From: a virus
DNA length: 64,000 bases
Reading direction: 5' to 3' (one strand)
Virus genome (UHGV): UHGV-0312702
Position 1 is the first letter of the stretch. Each line of letters opens with the position of its first letter. A model generated the notes under the pieces. It had not been told where the DNA came from and did not search any database. It saw only the letters and a program-made list of their open reading frames with translations. Positions 16,395 to 22,408 of the stretch are shown piece after piece. Both the position numbers and the translations under genes were made by a program.

Positions 16395-16616
16395 TATGTT
16401 TTCTCCAAATAATTAATTTTGTTTCTCCTTAAAAAAGACGGCACAGAGACCGTCAAGGAGAAACCACAATGTACGTCAGAGACATACTGTATAAGGCTTC
16501 TTATAAAGTATAACTCTGTAAAAAAGCCCTGTCTAAAAATACTCTTCGGTAGCGAAAGGAAGAATACTTATAGCAGGGCATTATTATTATTTTAATTGAG
16601 AGAGAGTAAAATAACT

Positions 16617-16692
16617 TGGAGAATCCGAAGGGACTCGAACCCTTATAAACCTGTTTTGCAGACAGGCACATAGCCATTTCTGTCACGGATTC
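16617..16692 (-). tRNA. tRNA-Cys (anticodon GCA)
   Basis: Hand-folded cloverleaf: acceptor CGGATTC pairs with GAATCCG, T-loop TTCGAGT, anticodon loop CTGCAAA, CCA encoded. Confidence 0.75.
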
Positions 16693-16696
16693 AAAT

Positions 16697-16789
16697 TGGA
16701 GGAAGATACCAGACTTGAACTGGTACACCGATTTCTCAGCTACTGGCAGTTTAGCAAACTGCTCCCTTACCTTTTAGGGTTAATCTTCC
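16697..16789 (-). tRNA. tRNA-Ser (anticodon GCT), class II with long variable arm
   Basis: Acceptor GGAAGAT/ATCTTCC, anticodon stem GCAGT/ACTGC with loop TTGCTAA, long variable arm, T-loop TTCAAGT. Confidence 0.7.
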
Positions 16790-16790
16790 A

Positions 16791-17525
16791 TTATTTCTGT
16801 AATGCGCTCTTCATTTCTGGTGTTGCAATAGTGTCAATCACACCAGTTTTACAAGCATCATCAAACCAGTCTGGTAAGATACCTGCTAAGAACCCATTGA
16901 TATTCGTTTTAAGGTACTCTGCAATAAGGGCAGCTTCTTCTTCAATCATCTGCACAACTTCATCTGCATAAGCTGTAATCTTTGAGATACCTTCATTAAT
17001 CTTACTAACAGCCTGATTAGCTAAATCAGAAACAGTATCAAGACCCTTATCAATAGCATCTTGTAAGTCACTTAATACATCATTAACGCTGTCTAGTGTA
17101 TCATTAATAGCATCAATAGCTTTTTGACCATACTCTGTAGCAACACCCATAATACCGCTGAATGGTGTACAACCAACTTGTTCTCCCGCTGCACCCATAA
17201 CATTGGAATATCCCTTTGCTACCTGCATACGTGATGAAAACTCGTCAATAGACTTTTGACCGTAGTCTGTTAGGGTCTTAGTAGTTGCTGTAGTGCTTGT
17301 CAGACTCGTTGTAAAGCTGTTTAGAAGGACTGTTGTAAGTCCAGCAGCAACAAGTTTTTCCTTCATTGCAGGGTCTGTTACAGAGCTAATAGAGCTTACA
17401 AGTGATGTAGAGGCAGCTACGGTTCCACCTAGAACTGCTGCACCAGTAATAAGGGGGTTAGAAAACCCTTTACCAGTTTTTAAGAGATTAAAAATCTCCT
17501 TACCTTGTCCTGTCATCTCTTTCAT
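16791..17525 (-). CDS. hypothetical Ser/Thr-rich protein embedded in tRNA island, about 245 aa
   Basis: ORF-track start (17588, GTG) would overlap tRNA-Phe; first ATG that clears the tRNA is at 17525. Confidence 0.5.
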   Translation of the reverse strand: MKEMTGQGKEIFNLLKTGKGFSNPLITGAAVLGGTVAASTSLVSSISSVTDPAMKEKLVAAGLTTVLLNSFTTSLTSTTATTKTLTDYGQKSIDEFSSRMQVAKGYSNVMGAAGEQVGCTPFSGIMGVATEYGQKAIDAINDTLDSVNDVLSDLQDAIDKGLDTVSDLANQAVSKINEGISKITAYADEVVQMIEEEAALIAEYLKTNINGFLAGILPDWFDDACKTGVIDTIATPEMKSALQK

Positions 17526-17543
17526 TAAGCACCTTTGAAATTG

Positions 17544-17618
17544 GTAGTCCAGTGGGATTTGAACCCTCTTCTCATGTTTTTCAGACACGCGCTTTAACCA
17601 TATAAGCTACTTGGACTA
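17544..17618 (-). tRNA. tRNA-Phe (anticodon GAA)
   Basis: Acceptor TAGTCCA/TGGACTA, anticodon stem CGTGT/ACATG, loop CTGAAAA, T-loop TTCAAAT. Confidence 0.7.
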
Positions 17619-17623
17619 TAAAT

Positions 17624-17700
17624 TGGGGTGACCTACGGGATTTGAACCCGTATAGACCATGTTCACAGCATGGGTCATTACCATTTATGATAAGGCCACA
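17624..17700 (-). tRNA. tRNA-His (anticodon GTG)
   Basis: Anticodon stem CCATG/CATGG with loop CTGTGAA; discriminator C; CCA encoded. Confidence 0.7.
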
Positions 17701-17730
17701 TTTAAGGACTCTCGTAAGAACCCTTAGAAG

Positions 17731-17806
17731 TGGCAGCGGCATAAGGATTTGAACCTTAATAGGACAGCTTCAGAGACTGTTGCATTGCCAGTTATGCTAT
17801 ACCGCT
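17731..17806 (-). tRNA. tRNA-Gln (anticodon CTG)
   Basis: Acceptor AGCGGTA/TGCCGCT, anticodon loop CTCTGAA, T-loop present. Confidence 0.65.
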
Positions 17807-17811
17807 AAATT

Positions 17812-17890
17812 TGGTACTCCATATCGGATTCGAACCGATACATAACACAGATTTTAAGTCTGGCCTCTCTGCCAATTGGAGTAATGGAGC
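17812..17890 (-). tRNA. tRNA with leucine anticodon TAA but class I architecture (short variable loop)
   Basis: Acceptor GCTCCAT/ATGGAGT, D-arm CTCC-AATTGGCAG-AGAG, anticodon stem CCAGA/TCTGT loop CTTAAAA, 7-nt variable loop, T-arm ATCGG-TTCGAAT-CCGAT, discriminator A. Confidence 0.6.
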
Positions 17891-17892
17891 AT

Positions 17893-17968
17893 TGGCGGGG
17901 GATGTTGGAATTGAACCAACTTCTTCGATTTCAAAGACCGAGGTTTTAACCTTGTAAACTAATCCCCT
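17893..17968 (-). tRNA. tRNA-Gln (anticodon TTG)
   Basis: Anticodon stem TCGGT/ATCGA loop CTTTGAA; T-arm GTTGG-TTCAATT-CCAAC; A1-C72 mismatch. Confidence 0.65.
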
Positions 17969-17976
17969 TTAAATCT

Positions 17977-18534
17977 TTACTTTCTTAGTGGATGAATAAA
18001 GAATGCCAACATAACTCTTTCCCTTGAGAATGCTCTTTCTTCTGGGACAACACTTTTAAGTTTCCACCCAACATAAATTCTCCAGTAAAATTGTTTACCA
18101 AAGACTTTAATTGATGGGATAAAAGCAAATAATCCCCAAGCATTGCTGTTCCACATTAGGAGATAACCTGTCTGATTATCTTCAGGGTTAGAACTTACGT
18201 TGATATTACCTTTCCACTTAGTAACATCTTTTACATCTCTTCCTAACACATGGTAAGAGAAGTTATAAGCTTTGTTTCTCCAGAGCCATCCAACTCTCTG
18301 CATATAAACACCGAGCTTACCAATCTTTCTAATCTTAGCCCATCGTTTGATATGACCTGCATCACCATCAATTGGGTTGTCATAAGTCTCCATCCATCTG
18401 AAACCAAAAGGCAGATGACCTTTCTTCTCACTGTAGAATGGGACTACGAAAGGTGCTAAGATAACTGCCAAGATTGCTGCAAATGGCTCTAACAAAGCTA
18501 AGAAAATCCATGAAGCATACTTCAAATATCTCAT
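17977..18534 (-). CDS. hypothetical membrane protein embedded in tRNA island, 185 aa
   Basis: ORF with hydrophobic N-terminus (IFLALLEPFAAILAVILAPFVVPF). Confidence 0.5.
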   Translation of the reverse strand: MRYLKYASWIFLALLEPFAAILAVILAPFVVPFYSEKKGHLPFGFRWMETYDNPIDGDAGHIKRWAKIRKIGKLGVYMQRVGWLWRNKAYNFSYHVLGRDVKDVTKWKGNINVSSNPEDNQTGYLLMWNSNAWGLFAFIPSIKVFGKQFYWRIYVGWKLKSVVPEERAFSRERVMLAFFIHPLRK

Positions 18535-18773
18535 TGTCTAATCCTAGTAAGGAGGTAAACATTATTATTTGTTTCTGAGTTTTCTGGTAAAGCTGTCTCA
18601 AAATTGACGCTTTTAAATTGTCTCCCACCAAAGTAATGACCAATAAATTTTTGTACTTTTATTGGGTCACATTCCCAGCCAACTTTCAAGAAAATGTGGG
18701 TATCTATAGTGGGAACCCTTACAAACTCAATACTATTGGAATTTTCATGTTCAACGACGATTAATGTTTGCAT
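18531..18773 (-). CDS. hypothetical protein, 80 aa
   Basis: ORF overlapping the start of the downstream gene by 4 nt. Confidence 0.4.
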   Translation of the reverse strand: MQTLIVVEHENSNSIEFVRVPTIDTHIFLKVGWECDPIKVQKFIGHYFGGRQFKSVNFETALPENSETNNNVYLLTRIRQ

Positions 18774-18791
18774 AAATCTCTCTTATTTATC

Positions 18792-18867
18792 TGGCGCAGG
18801 ATAAGGGACTTGAACCCCTATTAACAGCTTCGTAGACTGTTGCTCTATCCATTTGAACTAATCCTGC
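18792..18867 (-). tRNA. tRNA-Arg (anticodon ACG)
   Basis: Acceptor GCAGGAT/ATCCTGC, anticodon loop CTACGAA, CCA encoded. Confidence 0.7.
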
Positions 18868-18872
18868 AAAAT

Positions 18873-18950
18873 TGGTGTTCCAAGACGGATTCGAACCGTC
18901 ACTAGTACAAGGTTTGAGCTTGCATCCTCTGCCAATTGGGATACTGGAAC
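18873..18950 (-). tRNA. tRNA with leucine anticodon CAA but class I architecture
   Basis: Acceptor GTTCCAG/TTGGAAC, D-arm TCCC-AATTGGCAG-AGGA, anticodon stem GCAAG/CTTGT loop CTCAAAC, 6-nt variable loop, T-arm GACGG-TTCGAAT-CCGTC; only 84 nt available between flanking tRNAs. Confidence 0.6.
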
Positions 18951-18951
18951 A

Positions 18952-19026
18952 TGGTACTCACTAAAGGACTTGAACCTTTTTCTTCATCTTGTAAGGGTGA
19001 TGTTTTACCATATAAACTAAGCGAGT
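18952..19026 (-). tRNA. tRNA-Val (anticodon TAC)
   Basis: Acceptor ACTCGCT/AGTGAGT, anticodon loop CTTACAA, T-arm AAAGG/CCTTT. Confidence 0.65.
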
Positions 19027-19122
19027 GTGAAAGAGGTCTGAAGTTGTGCCACTAACTCAACTCCGTGGAATTTGTTACGGTCTTCAGTTGACTCAAAGTG
19101 GTCTTTCACTTGACCTCTGAAT
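19027..19122 (-). ncRNA. candidate structured small RNA in tRNA-cluster spacer (not a tRNA)
   Basis: 96-nt spacer with complementary ends (AGAGGTC ... GACCTCT) and nested complementary segments (GTGAAAGA/TCTTTCAC, CTGAAG/CTTCAG); no T-loop motif. Confidence 0.3.
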
Positions 19123-19198
19123 TGGTGCTCCCACAAGGATTCGAACCCTGATAAGTTGCTTACAAGGCAACCGTAATAGCCAATTATACGATAGGAGC
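19123..19198 (-). tRNA. tRNA-Thr (anticodon TGT)
   Basis: Anticodon stem GTTGC/GCAAC with loop CTTGTAA; T-loop TTCGAAT. Confidence 0.7.
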
Positions 19199-19205
19199 AT
19201 TAATT

Positions 19206-19280
19206 TGGAGCATCCAGAGGGAATCGAACCCTCAACCTCAGTTTGGAAGACTGTAATTTTCCCGTTTAAACTATGGATGC
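19206..19280 (-). tRNA. tRNA-Gly (anticodon TCC)
   Basis: Acceptor GCATCCA/TGGATGC perfect 7 bp, anticodon loop CTTCCAA. Confidence 0.7.
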
Positions 19281-19286
19281 ACTAAT

Positions 19287-19362
19287 TGGTGGAGAAGCAG
19301 GGAATTGAACCCTGTACTTAAGTTTGCAAAACTTATGTTTTAACCATGTAAACTACATCCCC
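19287..19362 (-). tRNA. tRNA-Ala (anticodon TGC)
   Basis: Anticodon stem TAAGT/ACTTA loop TTTGCAA; G3-U70 wobble pair present (Ala identity element); T-arm CAGGG-TTCAATT-CCCTG. Confidence 0.7.
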
Positions 19363-19368
19363 AATGTT

Positions 19369-19444
19369 TGGTACAGGTGGAGGGAATTGAACCCATCGTC
19401 TTACTGATTAAGAGTCAGCCGCATAACCATTTTGCTACACCTGC
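19369..19444 (-). tRNA. tRNA-Lys (anticodon CTT)
   Basis: Acceptor GCAGGTG/CACCTGT, anticodon loop CTCTTAA. Confidence 0.65.
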
Positions 19445-19451
19445 ATTAATT

Positions 19452-19528
19452 TGGTACACCTAGAGAGATTCGAACTCACACTGAGCAGATTCTAAGTCTG
19501 CTGCCTCTACCAGTTGGGCTATAGGTGC
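19452..19528 (-). tRNA. tRNA with leucine anticodon TAG but class I architecture
   Basis: Acceptor GCACCTA/TAGGTGT, D-arm GCC-CAACTGGTAGA-GGC, anticodon stem GCAGA/TCTGC loop CTTAGAA, 5-nt variable loop. Confidence 0.6.
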
Positions 19529-19786
19529 ATTAAATCTTTTTAGAGAACTTCTAAGAACCTAAGCAACAAGGTTCCACAACAAGCTGTAATAACCTTAGAA
19601 GCCCTCTAAAAAGACCTAAAAAGGTCTTTGCATAGTCTTGTTTAATCCGGTGACTAGAACCTTTGGAGAGCTTGATATTATCTCTTCTCCGTGACACCTA
19701 CTAGGTGCTTTACTGTGCGTGTACGACAATACACGAGGGATACCAAAGCAACATCCGAATGAAGCTTGGCTTTAAATCTTATTAGG

Positions 19787-19874
19787 CGGTAAGTAAAGGA
19801 GTCGAACCCTCACCGTATCTCTACAGTGGCAACTGTTTTCAAGACAGTTTGGCTACCATTAGCCGCTACCTACC
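19787..19874 (-). tRNA. tRNA-Ser (anticodon TGA), class II
   Basis: 88 nt, acceptor GGTAGGT/ACTTACC, anticodon stem ACTGT/ACAGT loop CTTGAAA, long variable arm; CCA not encoded. Confidence 0.6.
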
Positions 19875-19887
19875 CCTAATAAGACTT

Positions 19888-19970
19888 TGGCATGGGACGG
19901 AGGAGTTGAACCCCTTTGAAACGGTTTTGGAGGCCGTTGCTCATGCCTTAGAGTCTTAACATCGTCCCAC
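19888..19970 (-). tRNA. tRNA-Trp (anticodon CCA), atypically long 5' half
   Basis: Acceptor GTGGGAC/GTCCCAT, anticodon loop CTCCAAA, T-arm GGGG-TTCAACT-CCTC; D-arm region about 7 nt longer than canonical. Confidence 0.5.
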
Positions 19971-20112
19971 ACTATAATTCGAAACTTACCGTATTATCTC
20001 AACACTGTAAAGCCCCTTCTCAGATTATTTACATGTTCTGGAAAACATGAGATACAGACCACCTCCCTACAGGAAGACCCGCTTAGGTCGTCTAAGTAAT
20101 CTGCTAACTAAT

Positions 20113-20189
20113 TGGCACACCCTACAGGATTCGAACCTGTAACTAACGATTTAGAAGACCGTTGCTCTATCCAATTGAACTAAGGGTGC
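20113..20189 (-). tRNA. tRNA-Arg (anticodon TCT)
   Basis: Anticodon stem ACGGT/ATCGT loop CTTCTAA; acceptor GCACCCT/AGGGTGT. Confidence 0.65.
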
Positions 20190-20526
20190 ATTAATCTTTA
20201 AAGACTCTCTTAGAAAGCCCTTAAAGATGCCCACCTTATTAATCATACCGTGGGCTAGTACGCCAAATTCTTTGATGAGGGATTGGAAGACCTCACTGGT
20301 GTTTAGCCTATCAAGCTACTGCCAGAAAAACATTGTCGTTTGCATTTATTTTAAATTTGCAAAATAGACGCTACGCAACGAAAACTATTCAGAATATGTA
20401 CAACAAATTTCCCCACATTGTGTTACGTCTAACGCTCATGTATTGGTGTTTGAATTATACATATTATGAATTATTTTTAGTTACTATAAAGTAGTCACAT
20501 CTCAATGTCAACAACTTTATTGAAAT

Positions 20527-20601
20527 TGGTTGTAGGTGAGGGTATCGAACCCTCTTCTAACGGTTATCAGCCGTTTGCATTACCATTTATGCTAACCCAC
20601 A
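20527..20601 (-). tRNA. tRNA-Ile (anticodon GAT)
   Basis: Anticodon stem AACGG/CCGTT loop CTGATAA; T-arm GAGGG-TTCGATA-CCCTC. Confidence 0.7.
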
Positions 20602-20602
20602 A

Positions 20603-20680
20603 TTGGAGGTTCAGGTGGGAATCGAACCCACATTCATAGGGCTTATGAAACCCCTGCATTACCTTATCTGCGACTGAACC
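20603..20680 (-). tRNA. tRNA-Met (anticodon CAT), elongator-like
   Basis: Perfect acceptor GGTTCAG/CTGAACC, anticodon stem GGGGT/GCCCT loop TTCATAA. Confidence 0.6.
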
Positions 20681-20684
20681 ATAT

Positions 20685-20760
20685 TGGTAGAAGTGGAGGG
20701 ATTCGAACCCATCGCCTGTCAGATTAAAAGTCTGCCGCATCACCATTCTGCTACACTTCC
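20685..20760 (-). tRNA. tRNA-Lys (anticodon TTT)
   Basis: Acceptor GGAAGTG/CACTTCT, anticodon loop CTTTTAA. Confidence 0.65.
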
Positions 20761-20909
20761 ATTAAATTATCTTTGTAGATAAGCTACCCAGACTTGCTTA
20801 AGGTCTGTAGCGATGTGCCTTGTTGGGTTTAAATCTAGAATTTACCCTTTCACCCTTTGTGGTCGCATACTCACAGGTAAGCTTAATAGCTCACCTACAA
20901 AGATAATTA

Positions 20910-21041
20910 CCAGACCGTTGTTTATCATCTTAAGTGCTACCATTACACCAACTCGACATCTGCCGAGTGAAGGAATCGAACCTTCGCCTTTTCTTTACCG
21001 GAGAAATAGATTGTTTAAGTTTTGCTGTAAACGGTCTTCTG
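20910..21041 (-). repeat. bounded spacer unit D (CCAGACC ... TGCTGTAAACGGTCTTCTG) containing a tRNA-like T-arm
   Basis: Shares both end motifs with units at 21055, 21484, 21637; contains GAAGG-AATCGAA-CCTTC (tRNA T-arm signature at 20969-20985) but no canonical anticodon loop or acceptor pairing. Confidence 0.5.
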
Positions 21042-21054
21042 TAAATTTGTTGAG

Positions 21055-21128
21055 CCAGACCAAGTTTTAAATTTTCAAAATTAAATTGGCTTGAAATTTC
21101 ATACATTCTTGCTGAATTTGGTCTTCTG
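21055..21128 (-). repeat. bounded spacer unit A (CCAGACC ... TGCTGAATTTGGTCTTCTG)
   Basis: Same terminal motifs as units B, C, D; the two ends are mutually complementary (AGACC/GGTCT). Confidence 0.5.
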
Positions 21129-21215
21129 CTCCTTTAAAGAATACTCGCAAGAACTCTTTAAGGGAGGGGCTAAATAGCCCTCTCAAAACATCATTTTGAA
21201 ATACTTATTATAATT

Positions 21216-21293
21216 TGGCGGTTACGAAGGGATTTGAACCCTCATCATCTCCCGTGACAGGGGAGTATTTTAACCAGATTAAACTACATAACC
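21216..21293 (-). tRNA. tRNA-Asp (anticodon GTC)
   Basis: Anticodon stem CTCCC/GGGAG loop CTGTCAC; acceptor GGTTATG/CGTAACC. Confidence 0.65.
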
Positions 21294-21298
21294 TTTAT

Positions 21299-21386
21299 TG
21301 GTGTGCCGTGTAGGAGTCGAACCTACCGAGTCTCAATGACAAGGGATTTACAGTCCCCACCGCTACCATCTACGGGATAACGACAC
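21299..21386 (-). tRNA. tRNA-Tyr (anticodon GTA), class II
   Basis: 88 nt; acceptor GTGTCGT/ACGGCAC, anticodon stem GGGA/TCCC loop CTGTAAA, long variable arm. Confidence 0.65.
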
Positions 21387-21395
21387 ATTTTAATT

Positions 21396-21472
21396 TGGCG
21401 GTTAGTCAGGGATTCGAACCCTGTGCCATTCGCTTAACAGGCGACCGCACATACCTTATGTGCTTCCTAACC
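21396..21472 (-). tRNA. tRNA-Asn (anticodon GTT)
   Basis: Anticodon loop CTGTTAA; T-arm CAGGG-TTCGAAT-CCCTG. Confidence 0.65.
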
Positions 21473-21483
21473 TTAATACATTG

Positions 21484-21542
21484 CCAGACCGTGTTTTTCT
21501 TTTATCCGCAAAAAGTAGTTTGTTGCTGAATACGGTCTTCTG
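21484..21542 (-). repeat. bounded spacer unit B (CCAGACC ... TGCTGAATACGGTCTTCTG)
   Basis: 59-nt unit between tRNA-Asn and the second CAT tRNA with the same end motifs. Confidence 0.5.
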
Positions 21543-21548
21543 CAAAAT

Positions 21549-21625
21549 TGGAGGCGGGTGCAGGAGTCGAACCTGCCGATACCATGCTAATGAGACATGT
21601 GAGACGCCCTTTCTCTATACCCGCA
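21549..21625 (-). tRNA. tRNA with anticodon CAT, second copy (initiator Met or Ile-lysidine type), atypical
   Basis: Anticodon stem CATGT/GCATG loop CTCATTA (pyrimidine at 37); acceptor pairs only with a 1-72 mismatch or a 1-nt register shift; D-stem GAGA/TCTC. Confidence 0.5.
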
Positions 21626-21636
21626 ATTCTTAATGA

Positions 21637-21709
21637 CCAGACCAAATCTCTTCTTTGTCCGATTGAATGTCAGATGAATAAGATTAAATTTGCTGTAATT
21701 GGTCTTCTG
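21637..21709 (-). repeat. bounded spacer unit C (CCAGACC ... TGCTGTAATTGGTCTTCTG)
   Basis: 73-nt unit between the CAT tRNA and tRNA-Glu with the same end motifs. Confidence 0.5.
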
Positions 21710-21716
21710 TCAAAAC

Positions 21717-21791
21717 TGGTGTCGTAGACAGGATTCGAACCTGCGAGCAACTGATTGAAGGTCAGGTGGCTAACCATTTGCCTTCTACGAC
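21717..21791 (-). tRNA. tRNA-Glu (anticodon TTC), C at position 33
   Basis: Perfect acceptor GTCGTAG/CTACGAC, anticodon stem CTGA/TCAG with loop CCTTCAA. Confidence 0.55.
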
Positions 21792-21792
21792 A

Positions 21793-22149
21793 TTAAACCA
21801 TTGTAATTCCACTATGAACCTCTCTGTGGCAATTAGCGCATAGCAAAACACATTTATCAAGTTCTTTTTTAACCTTTTCCCAAGATGCACCCATAAGTTT
21901 TGATGGTGTATTCTCTTTTTCGTTTGGGTTAAGGTGATGCCATTCTAAAGCATTTTTACATTTATTATAGCCACAAATTATGCAACTATCGCCATAAAGC
22001 TTATATGCTTTCTCCCTATTGGCATCCTCTCTAAGTTTTGTCCTTAATGCACAACATTTTAGACAATTTACTCTATTACCGGCGTTACCATTCTTATGAA
22101 TGCTATGTTCAGTTAAACCATGAACTGGACATTCTTTTAAAAATCTCAT
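21793..22149 (-). CDS. HNH homing endonuclease, about 118 aa
   Basis: Cys-rich zinc-finger region plus HNH motif (EWHHLNP ... LLCANCHREVH); ORF-track start at 22227 overlaps tRNA-Pro, so the start is placed at the ATG at 22149. Confidence 0.7.
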   Translation of the reverse strand: MRFLKECPVHGLTEHSIHKNGNAGNRVNCLKCCALRTKLREDANREKAYKLYGDSCIICGYNKCKNALEWHHLNPNEKENTPSKLMGASWEKVKKELDKCVLLCANCHREVHSGITMV

Positions 22150-22166
22150 AGTAACCCCTTTAAATT

Positions 22167-22243
22167 TGGTCTCTGTTGGAGGACTTGAACCTCCGGCCTT
22201 ACCGCCCCAAACGGAACGCTCTACCAAGCTGAGCTAAACAGAG
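22167..22243 (-). tRNA. tRNA-Pro (anticodon TGG)
   Basis: Perfect acceptor CTCTGTT/AACAGAG, D-arm GCTC-AGCTTGGTA-GAGC, anticodon loop TTTGGGG, T-arm GGAGG-TTCAAGT-CCTCC. Confidence 0.75.
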
Positions 22244-22270
22244 ATAAACTTTTCAAACTCTATGTAACCA

Positions 22271-22299
22271 CTTTAACATTATTTTTTAGTGGTTGTCAA
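22271..22299 (-). promoter_or_regulatory. candidate sigma70-like promoter for the tRNA operon
   Basis: On - strand TTGACA, 17-nt spacer, TTAAAG, about 20 nt upstream of tRNA-Pro. Confidence 0.3.
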
Positions 22300-22408
22300 G
22301 AACTTTTTTAAAATATTTTTCAGTATCTTAGAAAAGCTCTCATTTCGTTTCTATGTAGAACATATTAAAGGGTATCAAACACATTGTCAATACCCTTTTT
22401 AAAACTTT

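Follow-up and report, generated by a model that had tools for sequence, protein, structure and literature searches.

A spacer of 96 nucleotides (nt) in the tRNA gene array of the virus genome UHGV-0312702, of which a stretch of 64,000 nt (the window) was analysed, is read here as an independent, lineage-restricted small non-coding RNA gene embedded in a phage tRNA operon. Judging from the sequence we put the probability of this reading at roughly 55%. It draws on the conservation of the element, the covariation of its helices, the strand on which its fold is kept, its genomic context and its non-membership in the known RNA families, all of which are observed; its processing, its stability and a role in trans we infer. 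The tRNA region of the window is 93-98% identical to that of Felix O1-like phages of Salmonella, Escherichia, Shigella and Citrobacter, and by this sequence the window is from a Felix O1-like phage. ARAGORN finds 25 tRNA genes in the window, every one on the minus strand, and returns exactly the coordinates that an earlier note on this DNA had given for the spacer between tRNA-Val and tRNA-Thr. The element and its neighbours are the following:

19027 to 19122, minus strand: the whole element, a 96-nt non-tRNA spacer from the 3' CCA of tRNA-Thr to the 5' end of tRNA-Val (gap between ARAGORN calls).
19123 to 19198, minus strand: upstream tRNA-Thr(UGU) with encoded CCA; helix P1 of the element begins 4 nt past this CCA (ARAGORN).
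18952 to 19026, minus strand: downstream tRNA-Val(UAC) (ARAGORN).

As the tRNA genes are on the minus strand, the order in the transcript is tRNA-Thr with its CCA, AUUC, the element and tRNA-Val, and the closing stem of the element is followed by UUUCAC before tRNA-Val begins. On the minus strand the array is flanked by a strong sigma-70-like promoter at 20511-20483 and, at 16454-16437, by a terminator-like hairpin, an arrangement compatible with one transcription unit, which makes co-transcription of the element and the tRNAs plausible.

The high self-complementarity noticed earlier goes beyond chance. The minus strand of the element has a minimum free energy of -28.5 kcal/mol against -19.4 +/- 2.7 in 200 dinucleotide shuffles (z score -3.41, with 0/200 shuffles as good); the plus strand folds with comparable energy but less exceptionally (z -2.4). 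For the comparative structure 22 distinct variants were aligned to a covariance model, R1. The structural features, with the columns of this alignment, are:

19112 to 19118, minus strand: 5' strand of P1, AGAGGUC (columns 4-10), partner 19032-19038.
19032 to 19038, minus strand: 3' strand of P1, GACCUCU (columns 84-90), partner 19112-19118.
19098 to 19101, minus strand: 5' strand of P2, CCAC, which is CCGC in most relatives (columns 21-24), partner 19049-19052.
19049 to 19052, minus strand: 3' strand of P2, GUGG, within the loop of the 3' hairpin (columns 70-73), partner 19098-19101.
19058 to 19064, minus strand: 5' strand of the 3' hairpin ("Alt"), GGAGUUG (columns 58-64), partner 19040-19046.
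19040 to 19046, minus strand: 3' strand of the 3' hairpin ("Alt"), CAACUUC (columns 76-82), partner 19058-19064.
19066 to 19092, minus strand: invariant 27-nt core GUCAACUGAAGACCGUAACAAAUUCCA, containing the CUGAAGACC box and the AACAAAUUCC loop (columns 30-56; sequence comparison).
19057 to 19091, minus strand: alternative rod conformer, with P3 UCAACU/AGUUGA (19086-19091 with 19057-19062), a GAAGA bulge, P4 CCGU/ACGG (19077-19080 with 19063-19066) and a 10-nt loop (minimum free energy and RNAalifold consensus).

Covariation across related phages, which had been proposed as a check, finds pairing conserved in P1, P2 and the 3' hairpin: 98.0% of the cells of these three helices are paired, a share that drops to 34-46% once the partner strands are shifted by 1-3 columns, and their observed covariation score is reached by 0/500 shuffles. 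P1 shows a G-C to U-A double transversion in the lineage of phage Av-05 and a G.U pair in contig L045. P2 (CCGC/GCGG in relatives) is paired in 100% of the variants and passes from G-C through the wobble intermediate G.U, seen in L072, to the A-U of this window (CCAC/GUGG). The 3' hairpin of 7 base pairs (bp), one nucleotide away from P1, is likewise 100% paired in the 22 variants, with four of its seven pairs varying (GC/GU; GU/GC/AU; AU/GC/GU; UA/UG). Compensatory and wobble changes of this kind point to selection acting on the structure of the RNA, on sequence evidence that is real but thin. The three pairings named in the earlier note are all literally complementary, and the terminal one, AGAGGUC with GACCUCU, is kept across relatives. 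The two inner ones are not conserved as stems: GUGAAAGA with UCUUUCAC overlaps the end stem, is paired in 86.8% of cells across variants and is broken by substitutions, and CUGAAG with CUUCAG is paired in 93.2% and broken in the Av-05 lineage. The multi-stem model was in this sense one-third right, and it did not list the supported inner helices CCAC/GUGG and GGAGUUG/CAACUUC.

Since the 3' strand of P2 lies inside the hairpin loop, P2 and the hairpin would together make an H-type pseudoknot enclosed by P1. The rod and the 3' hairpin are mutually exclusive. Pairs specific to the rod are broken in four substitution events, namely G59A (in wV8/L019 and, independently, in contig L298), G44A (L036), A65U (L044) and A65C (phage TH18); G59A at the same time converts a G.U pair of the 3' hairpin to A-U. 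Of these two, the calculated energies favour the rod by 6-8 kcal/mol in the Felix-like copies, whereas for Av-05 and L044 they put the hairpin level with the rod or ahead of it. The model is either a pseudoknot or an RNA that would switch between the rod and hairpin conformers.

The paired cells hold 24 G.U against 1 A.C, so that it is in the tRNA-sense strand, and hence in the RNA, that the fold is preserved. This bears on a function at the level of DNA, as a palindromic protein-binding, recombination or homing site, for which one could cite that both strands fold about equally well and that homing-endonuclease genes are inserted nearby in relatives. With pairing kept only on the tRNA-sense strand, and with the HNH gene of phage FO1a not touching the element, such a function is scarcely credible. 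In L081 (Salmonella phage FO1a, 400-813) the gene in question, of HNH or endonuclease VII type, separates tRNA-Gly from tRNA-Thr and lies some 80 nt upstream of the element; it is also found in PHB11 and SFPB. An association of the element with homing endonucleases was rejected on this position, between Gly and Thr and not adjoining the element.

The element alone matches 260 phage records in GenBank. Of these, 254 belong to Felixounavirus, Mooglevirus and Suspvirus and are 90-98% identical, and a handful at about 80% are the Vequintavirinae phages Av-05 (Avunavirus) and TH18; further copies are present in IMG/VR and in metagenome contigs. Pattern scans of IMG/VR, of JGI and ENA metagenomes and of 185,579 bacterial and archaeal genomes returned only Felix-like or Avunavirus copies and chance matches in unrelated coding DNA, and no copy was found in E. 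coli genomes. In the window R1 finds the one copy, with 117 bits, and nothing further above 12 bits; a search with R1 for paralogues found none in the window, in phages phiEa104 and Wc4 or in T4. The 27-nt core is identical in Felix-like and Avunavirus copies save for singleton changes in L036 and L144. In L044, the Felix-like contig that diverges most, the element has 85% identity; among the other aligned spacers 4/7 have 67-79% and 3/7 (20190-20526, 21473-21548 and the 31-nt 17700-17730) at 93-96%.

Where the inspected GenBank records have any annotation at the position of the element, it is a "hypothetical protein", an "unknown" open reading frame (ORF) or an overlapping flanking tRNA gene; none of these records has an RNA gene there, and the annotated ORFs are judged spurious. 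Close relatives have linkers (CTTTGAG, CTGGTG, CTTGAG) whose lengths differ by 1 nt, which shifts any reading frame. A protein-coding ORF was rejected: no frame is kept among relatives, the sole open frame starts at a TTG inside tRNA-Thr, and there is no Pfam match. The linker variants (CTGGTG versus CTTTGAG) follow the allele of tRNA-Thr.

Host origin was also rejected, the sole E. coli match being a 26-nt same-sense stretch of a prophage antirepressor gene that was judged chance or irrelevant. Window positions 19050-19075 agree in 25/26 nt with positions 1501-1526 of L227, a prophage of E. coli HB37, over codons 9-17 of a Bro-N/P22AR antirepressor (...NFHGVELV...). The match is weak (E 0.2-3, the value of 0.2 coming from a highly redundant database of 28 gigabases), and on sequence grounds it cannot explain the boundaries or the covariation of the element. 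It is nevertheless, with its peptides NKFHGVELV and YNFHGVELV, one of the points for taking the element as a functionless relic of a decayed tRNA or ORF, the other being that the tRNA arrays of these phages are mosaic, with genes inserted and lost. A relic would hardly keep the same boundaries in two genomic contexts, compensatory changes and an invariant core; the linker indels shift the frame, there is no Pfam signal, the BLAST E values stay at 0.2-3 and no similarity to the tRNA model is seen. We regard decay as decidedly improbable.

The genomic context is informative in two directions. Two relatives among the Ounavirinae, phiEa104 (Kolesnikvirus) and Wc4, have spacers of 7 nt and 9 nt, respectively, between tRNA-Thr and tRNA-Val, and R1 finds no copy of the element in either tRNA array. 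With Thr and Val only 7-9 nt apart in these sister phages, the element is an accessory insertion and is dispensable for processing that junction. In Av-05 and TH18, on the other hand, the element begins 5 nt past the tRNA-Gly CCA, and two ORFs come after it. Those of Av-05 are homologous to the two downstream ORFs of this window (ORF80 with 34% amino acid identity and the DUF7338 protein with 79%), and in both genomes tRNA-Gln(UUG) comes after the two ORFs, so that tRNA-Gly, element, ORF80, DUF7338 and tRNA-Gln form a syntenic block common to both lineages. Av-05 is without the Thr, Val, Leu(CAA) and Arg(ACG) genes which flank the element in Felix-like phages, and its element is intact with identical boundaries; as far as sequence comparison goes, the element is retained across the rearrangement of the flanking tRNA genes.

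The cassette of ORF80 (phrog_14202) and the DUF7338 gene lies inside the tRNA array at 17977-18773 (minus strand) of the window and at 1623-2389 of L001, and is syntenic between Felix-like phages and Avunavirus. The DUF7338 protein is labelled "holin" in one record. It also occurs in contigs of 140-180 kb, with named homologues including those of large phages like Salmonella phage STP4-a and Cronobacter phage S13, at loci which are without the element; in a search with R1 over DUF7338-anchored loci Av-05's own locus matches and 46 others have no element. ORF80 was considered as a co-occurring partner protein of the element, and its homologues are few.

The same context speaks to the reading of the element as a cis-acting structured spacer, a processing or insulating device which would direct the separation of the upstream tRNA by an endonuclease, block 3' exonucleases and, in Av-05, cap the 5' end of the downstream mRNA. 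In both lineages the element starts 4-6 nt past a tRNA CCA, in Av-05 a sub-cluster of tRNA genes ends before it and two ORFs come after it, and the stable closing stem is its best-supported feature. Yet the sister phages process the Thr-Val junction with 7-9 nt, the other tRNA junctions in the window are just 1-9 nt long, and an invariant interior of 27 nt together with conserved inner helices exceeds what a passive stem needs. Because the element is dispensable at the Thr-Val junction, is retained with different flanks and has an invariant interior, an independent small RNA is preferred, and a spacer acting in cis seems to us rather unlikely.

Several points weigh against an independent small RNA. 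The invariant core could equally be explained as a cis-acting signal. The inner fold is ambiguous, with thermodynamics and RNAalifold favouring the rod and the comparative data favouring the 3' hairpin. Sequence diversity is low, with about three independent lineages and 22 distinct variants, and the covariation consequently rests on few events, mostly transitions tolerated by wobble. Complementarity of the element to the 64-kb window is not significant (longest run 11, shuffles 12-14), and that to the E. coli rrn operon (rRNA, ileV, alaV) is at background (12 against 11-13 in shuffles). A search of the literature returned nothing on the element, nor on small RNAs or a transcriptome of this phage group.

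Rfam 15 was scanned over 7 kb at E <= 1 and over 151 nt at E <= 10. No family is found at 19027-19122, including hammerhead, twister, pistol, hatchet, HDV-like (hepatitis delta virus-like), YrlA, transfer-messenger RNA (tmRNA) and 6S, and the noise at the element (snoR101 with 15.8 bits, sR4 with 9.9 bits) is far under gathering scores. That the spacer has no tRNA T-loop was correctly seen before: there is neither an ARAGORN call nor an Rfam match at the element, and a tRNA (RF00005) was rejected since the Rfam tRNA matches fall only on the flanking genes even at E <= 10. A hammerhead was rejected by inspection, CUGANGA being present but stem II lacking a following GAAA, and k-turn, sarcin-ricin and CsrA-site readings were rejected in the same way. 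The terminator scan found no terminator-like site at the element; an intrinsic terminator was rejected, there being no GC-rich hairpin with a U-run and the closing stem leading over UUUCAC into tRNA-Val.

Another reading considered was a ribozyme which by cutting itself would release the upstream tRNA's 3' end, after the model of the HDV-like theta ribozymes, which lie within +/-5 nt of phage tRNA ends (PMC10879173). The element resembles these in being phage-encoded and adjoining a tRNA 3' end (P1 starts 4 nt past the CCA here and 5 nt in Av-05 and TH18, 4-6 nt overall), and has a highly conserved core with a possible pseudoknot. It differs in size (about 90 nt versus 50-60 nt), and no J4/2 context with a catalytic C can be assigned. 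By inspection the strand order of its helices, A B C C' D B' D' A', is incompatible with the nested double pseudoknot A B C C' A' D D' B', so that an HDV-like topology was rejected; no HDV-like or other ribozyme family of Rfam matches the element at E <= 10, and the host needs no ribozyme to mature tRNAs with an encoded CCA. Self-cleavage is on this evidence very improbable indeed.

The comparison with T4 which the earlier note had drawn stands in so far as this is a discrete, conserved and structured non-tRNA element in a tRNA operon, and fails as to homology with the T4 stable RNAs. According to the T4 annotation rnaC (species 1) and rnaD (species 2) are non-tRNA RNAs on the tRNA strand, inside the phage tRNA cluster and beside a tRNA, as the element is. 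R1 run over T4 69500-74500 gives a best match of 11.2 bits (E = 0.18), which is outside rnaC and rnaD. The two T4 RNAs are longer (139 and 119 nt). A T-arm-like hairpin (CCGGG-UUCGAAU-CCCGG) closes the 3' part of rnaC and the element is without any tRNA-like arm; rnaC and rnaD are experimentally known stable species and the element is a predicted one. We infer that they share the tRNA processing route, and on this comparison the element is best called analogous, not homologous, to rnaC and rnaD. A bacterial parallel would be the E. coli 3'ETS-leuZ, reportedly described by Lalaouna et al. in 2015, a terminal tRNA trailer with a terminator that is said to bind Hfq and to sponge RyhB and RybB. 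The likeness, a functional RNA as by-product of tRNA-operon processing, would hold for the element; unlike 3'ETS-leuZ, the element is internal and has no U-tail.

In E. coli, RNase P sets the 5' ends of tRNAs, RNase E and other endonucleases cut the trailers, and exonucleases stall at stable helices. It follows that the element should leave the precursor as an RNA of about 90 nt closed by P1. It would be transcribed together with the tRNAs from the minus strand; RNase P, in cutting the 5' end of tRNA-Val, would set the 3' end of the element, and the 5' end would come from trimming of the tRNA-Thr trailer by an endonuclease, e.g. RNase E cutting in CCA/AUUC. The 7-bp P1, with about 4-6 unpaired nt at each end, would then protect the product of about 90 nt from exonucleases. 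Inside P1 the 3' hairpin would stand beside P1 and P2 would join the 5' junction strand to the hairpin loop, leaving displayed an invariant segment of 27-33 nt as a putative working surface for sequence-specific recognition by a protein or RNA partner.

Being unannotated, lineage-restricted, conserved and structured, the element joins the loose class of non-tRNA RNAs in phage tRNA operons. Felix O1-like phages are classic typing and therapy phages of Salmonella and E. coli, and hundreds of their genomes have been sequenced. Should the element truly be a processed RNA, it would be the second well-documented case, after T4, of non-tRNA RNAs in phage tRNA operons being matured by RNase P and its partners, and a tractable one, since it is a short, single-copy accessory insertion that is missing in close relatives. 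Phage tRNA arrays counter tRNA-targeting defences, which makes a conserved non-tRNA passenger a reasonable candidate for a related role. Were the element only a structured spacer the finding would be ordinary; a true trans-acting or anti-defence role, or a true link to the permuted tRNA-like RNA described below, would raise its interest much higher.

The recurrence of GAAGACC/GGTCTTC motifs in other spacers had also been pointed out. The motif is indeed enriched, with 18 sites in the window against 5.8 expected (0/100 shuffles reach 18), and clustered in the tRNA region. Two of the places that had been named do not carry it: nothing is present at about 20020, and 19610-19630 holds AAAGACC...GGTCTTT. 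The latter belongs to a 7-bp hairpin at 19602-19632 (minus strand), AAAGACC-UUUUUA-GGUCUUU followed by UUAG, in a 256-nt spacer past tRNA-Ser(UGA), which might serve in processing or as a weak terminator. The enrichment is due to four box units on the minus strand at 20906-21719. The sites of the tRNA region and the units are:

20073, 20154 and 20286, plus strand: GAAGACC sites (motif scan).
19079, 21033, 21120, 21534 and 21701, minus strand: GAAGACC sites (motif scan).
20906 to 21719, minus strand: four tandem GAAGACC-box units, with boxes at 21690-21709, 21523-21542, 21109-21128 and 21022-21041.
20906 to 21045, minus strand: unit D, by its predicted fold a circularly permuted tRNA-like RNA.

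Each unit has CAGAAGACC-NNNT-NCAGCAA at its start and GGTCTGG at its end, 55-120 nt later. The unit ends form a covarying bracket helix (AGACCAA with TTGGTCT; AGACCGT with ACGGTCT), and the interiors differ freely between phages. Two of the four begin 6-7 nt past a tRNA CCA. The four units are kept in Felix-like phages and are absent from Av-05, phiEa104 and Wc4.

Their sequence makes a kinship with the element possible, since CUGAAGACCGU occurs in the element, and AAAUUCCAC stands downstream of the box both in the element and in the unit D of Mooglevirus. The element might accordingly be a diverged member of a protein-binding small RNA family comprising the four GAAGACC-box units, with the common box C-W-GAAGACCGU and a Y-RNA-like shared stem. 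The four units are conserved and their bracket covaries, as such a family would have it. Against membership, R1 finds no second copy in the window, the element is without the 3' bracket strand GGUCUGG, Av-05 has the element and none of the four units, and the common strings are just 9-11 nt long; we think this origin improbable.

Unit D is predicted to fold with the bracket helix followed by a small arm with GGU in its loop, the ends emerging via the bracket helix. Next come a T-arm (GAAGG-UUCGAUU-CCUUC), then a 7-bp acceptor-like helix with a closing loop of 4-8 nt and three covarying pairs, after which GCCA stands in the Mooglevirus variant, and lastly a hairpin like a D-arm, whose loop is AAUGGUA. 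Rfam gives no family match for it beyond a partial tRNA match of 22 bits. Its strand order is that of the YrlA Y RNAs (PMC4201824), and its topology is also like that of two-piece tmRNA, but it has no Ro60-binding motif. The 96-nt element too shares traits with the bacterial Y RNAs YrlA and YrlB (PMC4201824), which are rod-like with paired ends, conserved internal loops and possibly tandem relatives. The resemblance to Y RNAs fits unit D far better: for the element a Y RNA or YrlA identity was rejected, there being no Ro60-binding motif GNCGAAN0-1G, no mimic of a T-arm or D-arm and no adjacent Ro60 gene. Unit D may be more novel than the element itself.

A wider proposal would take the element as a pseudoknotted or two-state scaffold which displays its 27 nt in trans, whether as a new catalytic RNA or as a decoy or sponge of a host protein, either one that binds RNA or a defence protein that targets tRNAs, and which together with the four GAAGACC-box RNAs forms a set of phage small RNAs matured by the tRNA machinery, one of them circularly permuted with Y-RNA topology. 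As a whole this is speculative, and we hold it to be doubtful.

Some minor observations concern the tRNA genes themselves. When window 16600-22300 is compared with related contigs, single tRNA genes are bimodal, with either about 100% or 55-85% identity between phages; tRNA-Thr, for example, is 76% identical in L014, L032 and L037 and 100% in L006. This suggests, from the sequences, gene-by-gene allele replacement within a conserved array. At 21720-21791 (minus strand) Rfam gives a tRNA match of 55.4 bits where ARAGORN makes no call, and in L144 a tRNA-Glu(UUC) is called just after tRNA-Pro at the corresponding position. The segment at about 19893-19972 (minus strand) is tRNA-shaped with a weak Rfam match to tRNA-Sec (23 bits) and by eye shows a T-arm, an acceptor stem of 7 bp and an anticodon loop that is enlarged and contains CUCCAAA. 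Possibly this is a tRNA-Trp(CCA) of degenerate or unusual form, a gene otherwise absent from the window and present in phiEa104.

Finally, the records GU169904.1 (Staphylococcus phage SA1) and MG065664.1 (Campylobacter phage A132) carry near-identical Felix O1-like sequence over the tRNA region, and MG065639.1 (Campylobacter phage A150) has a 96% match to tRNA-Thr; all three are probably contaminated or mislabelled assemblies.

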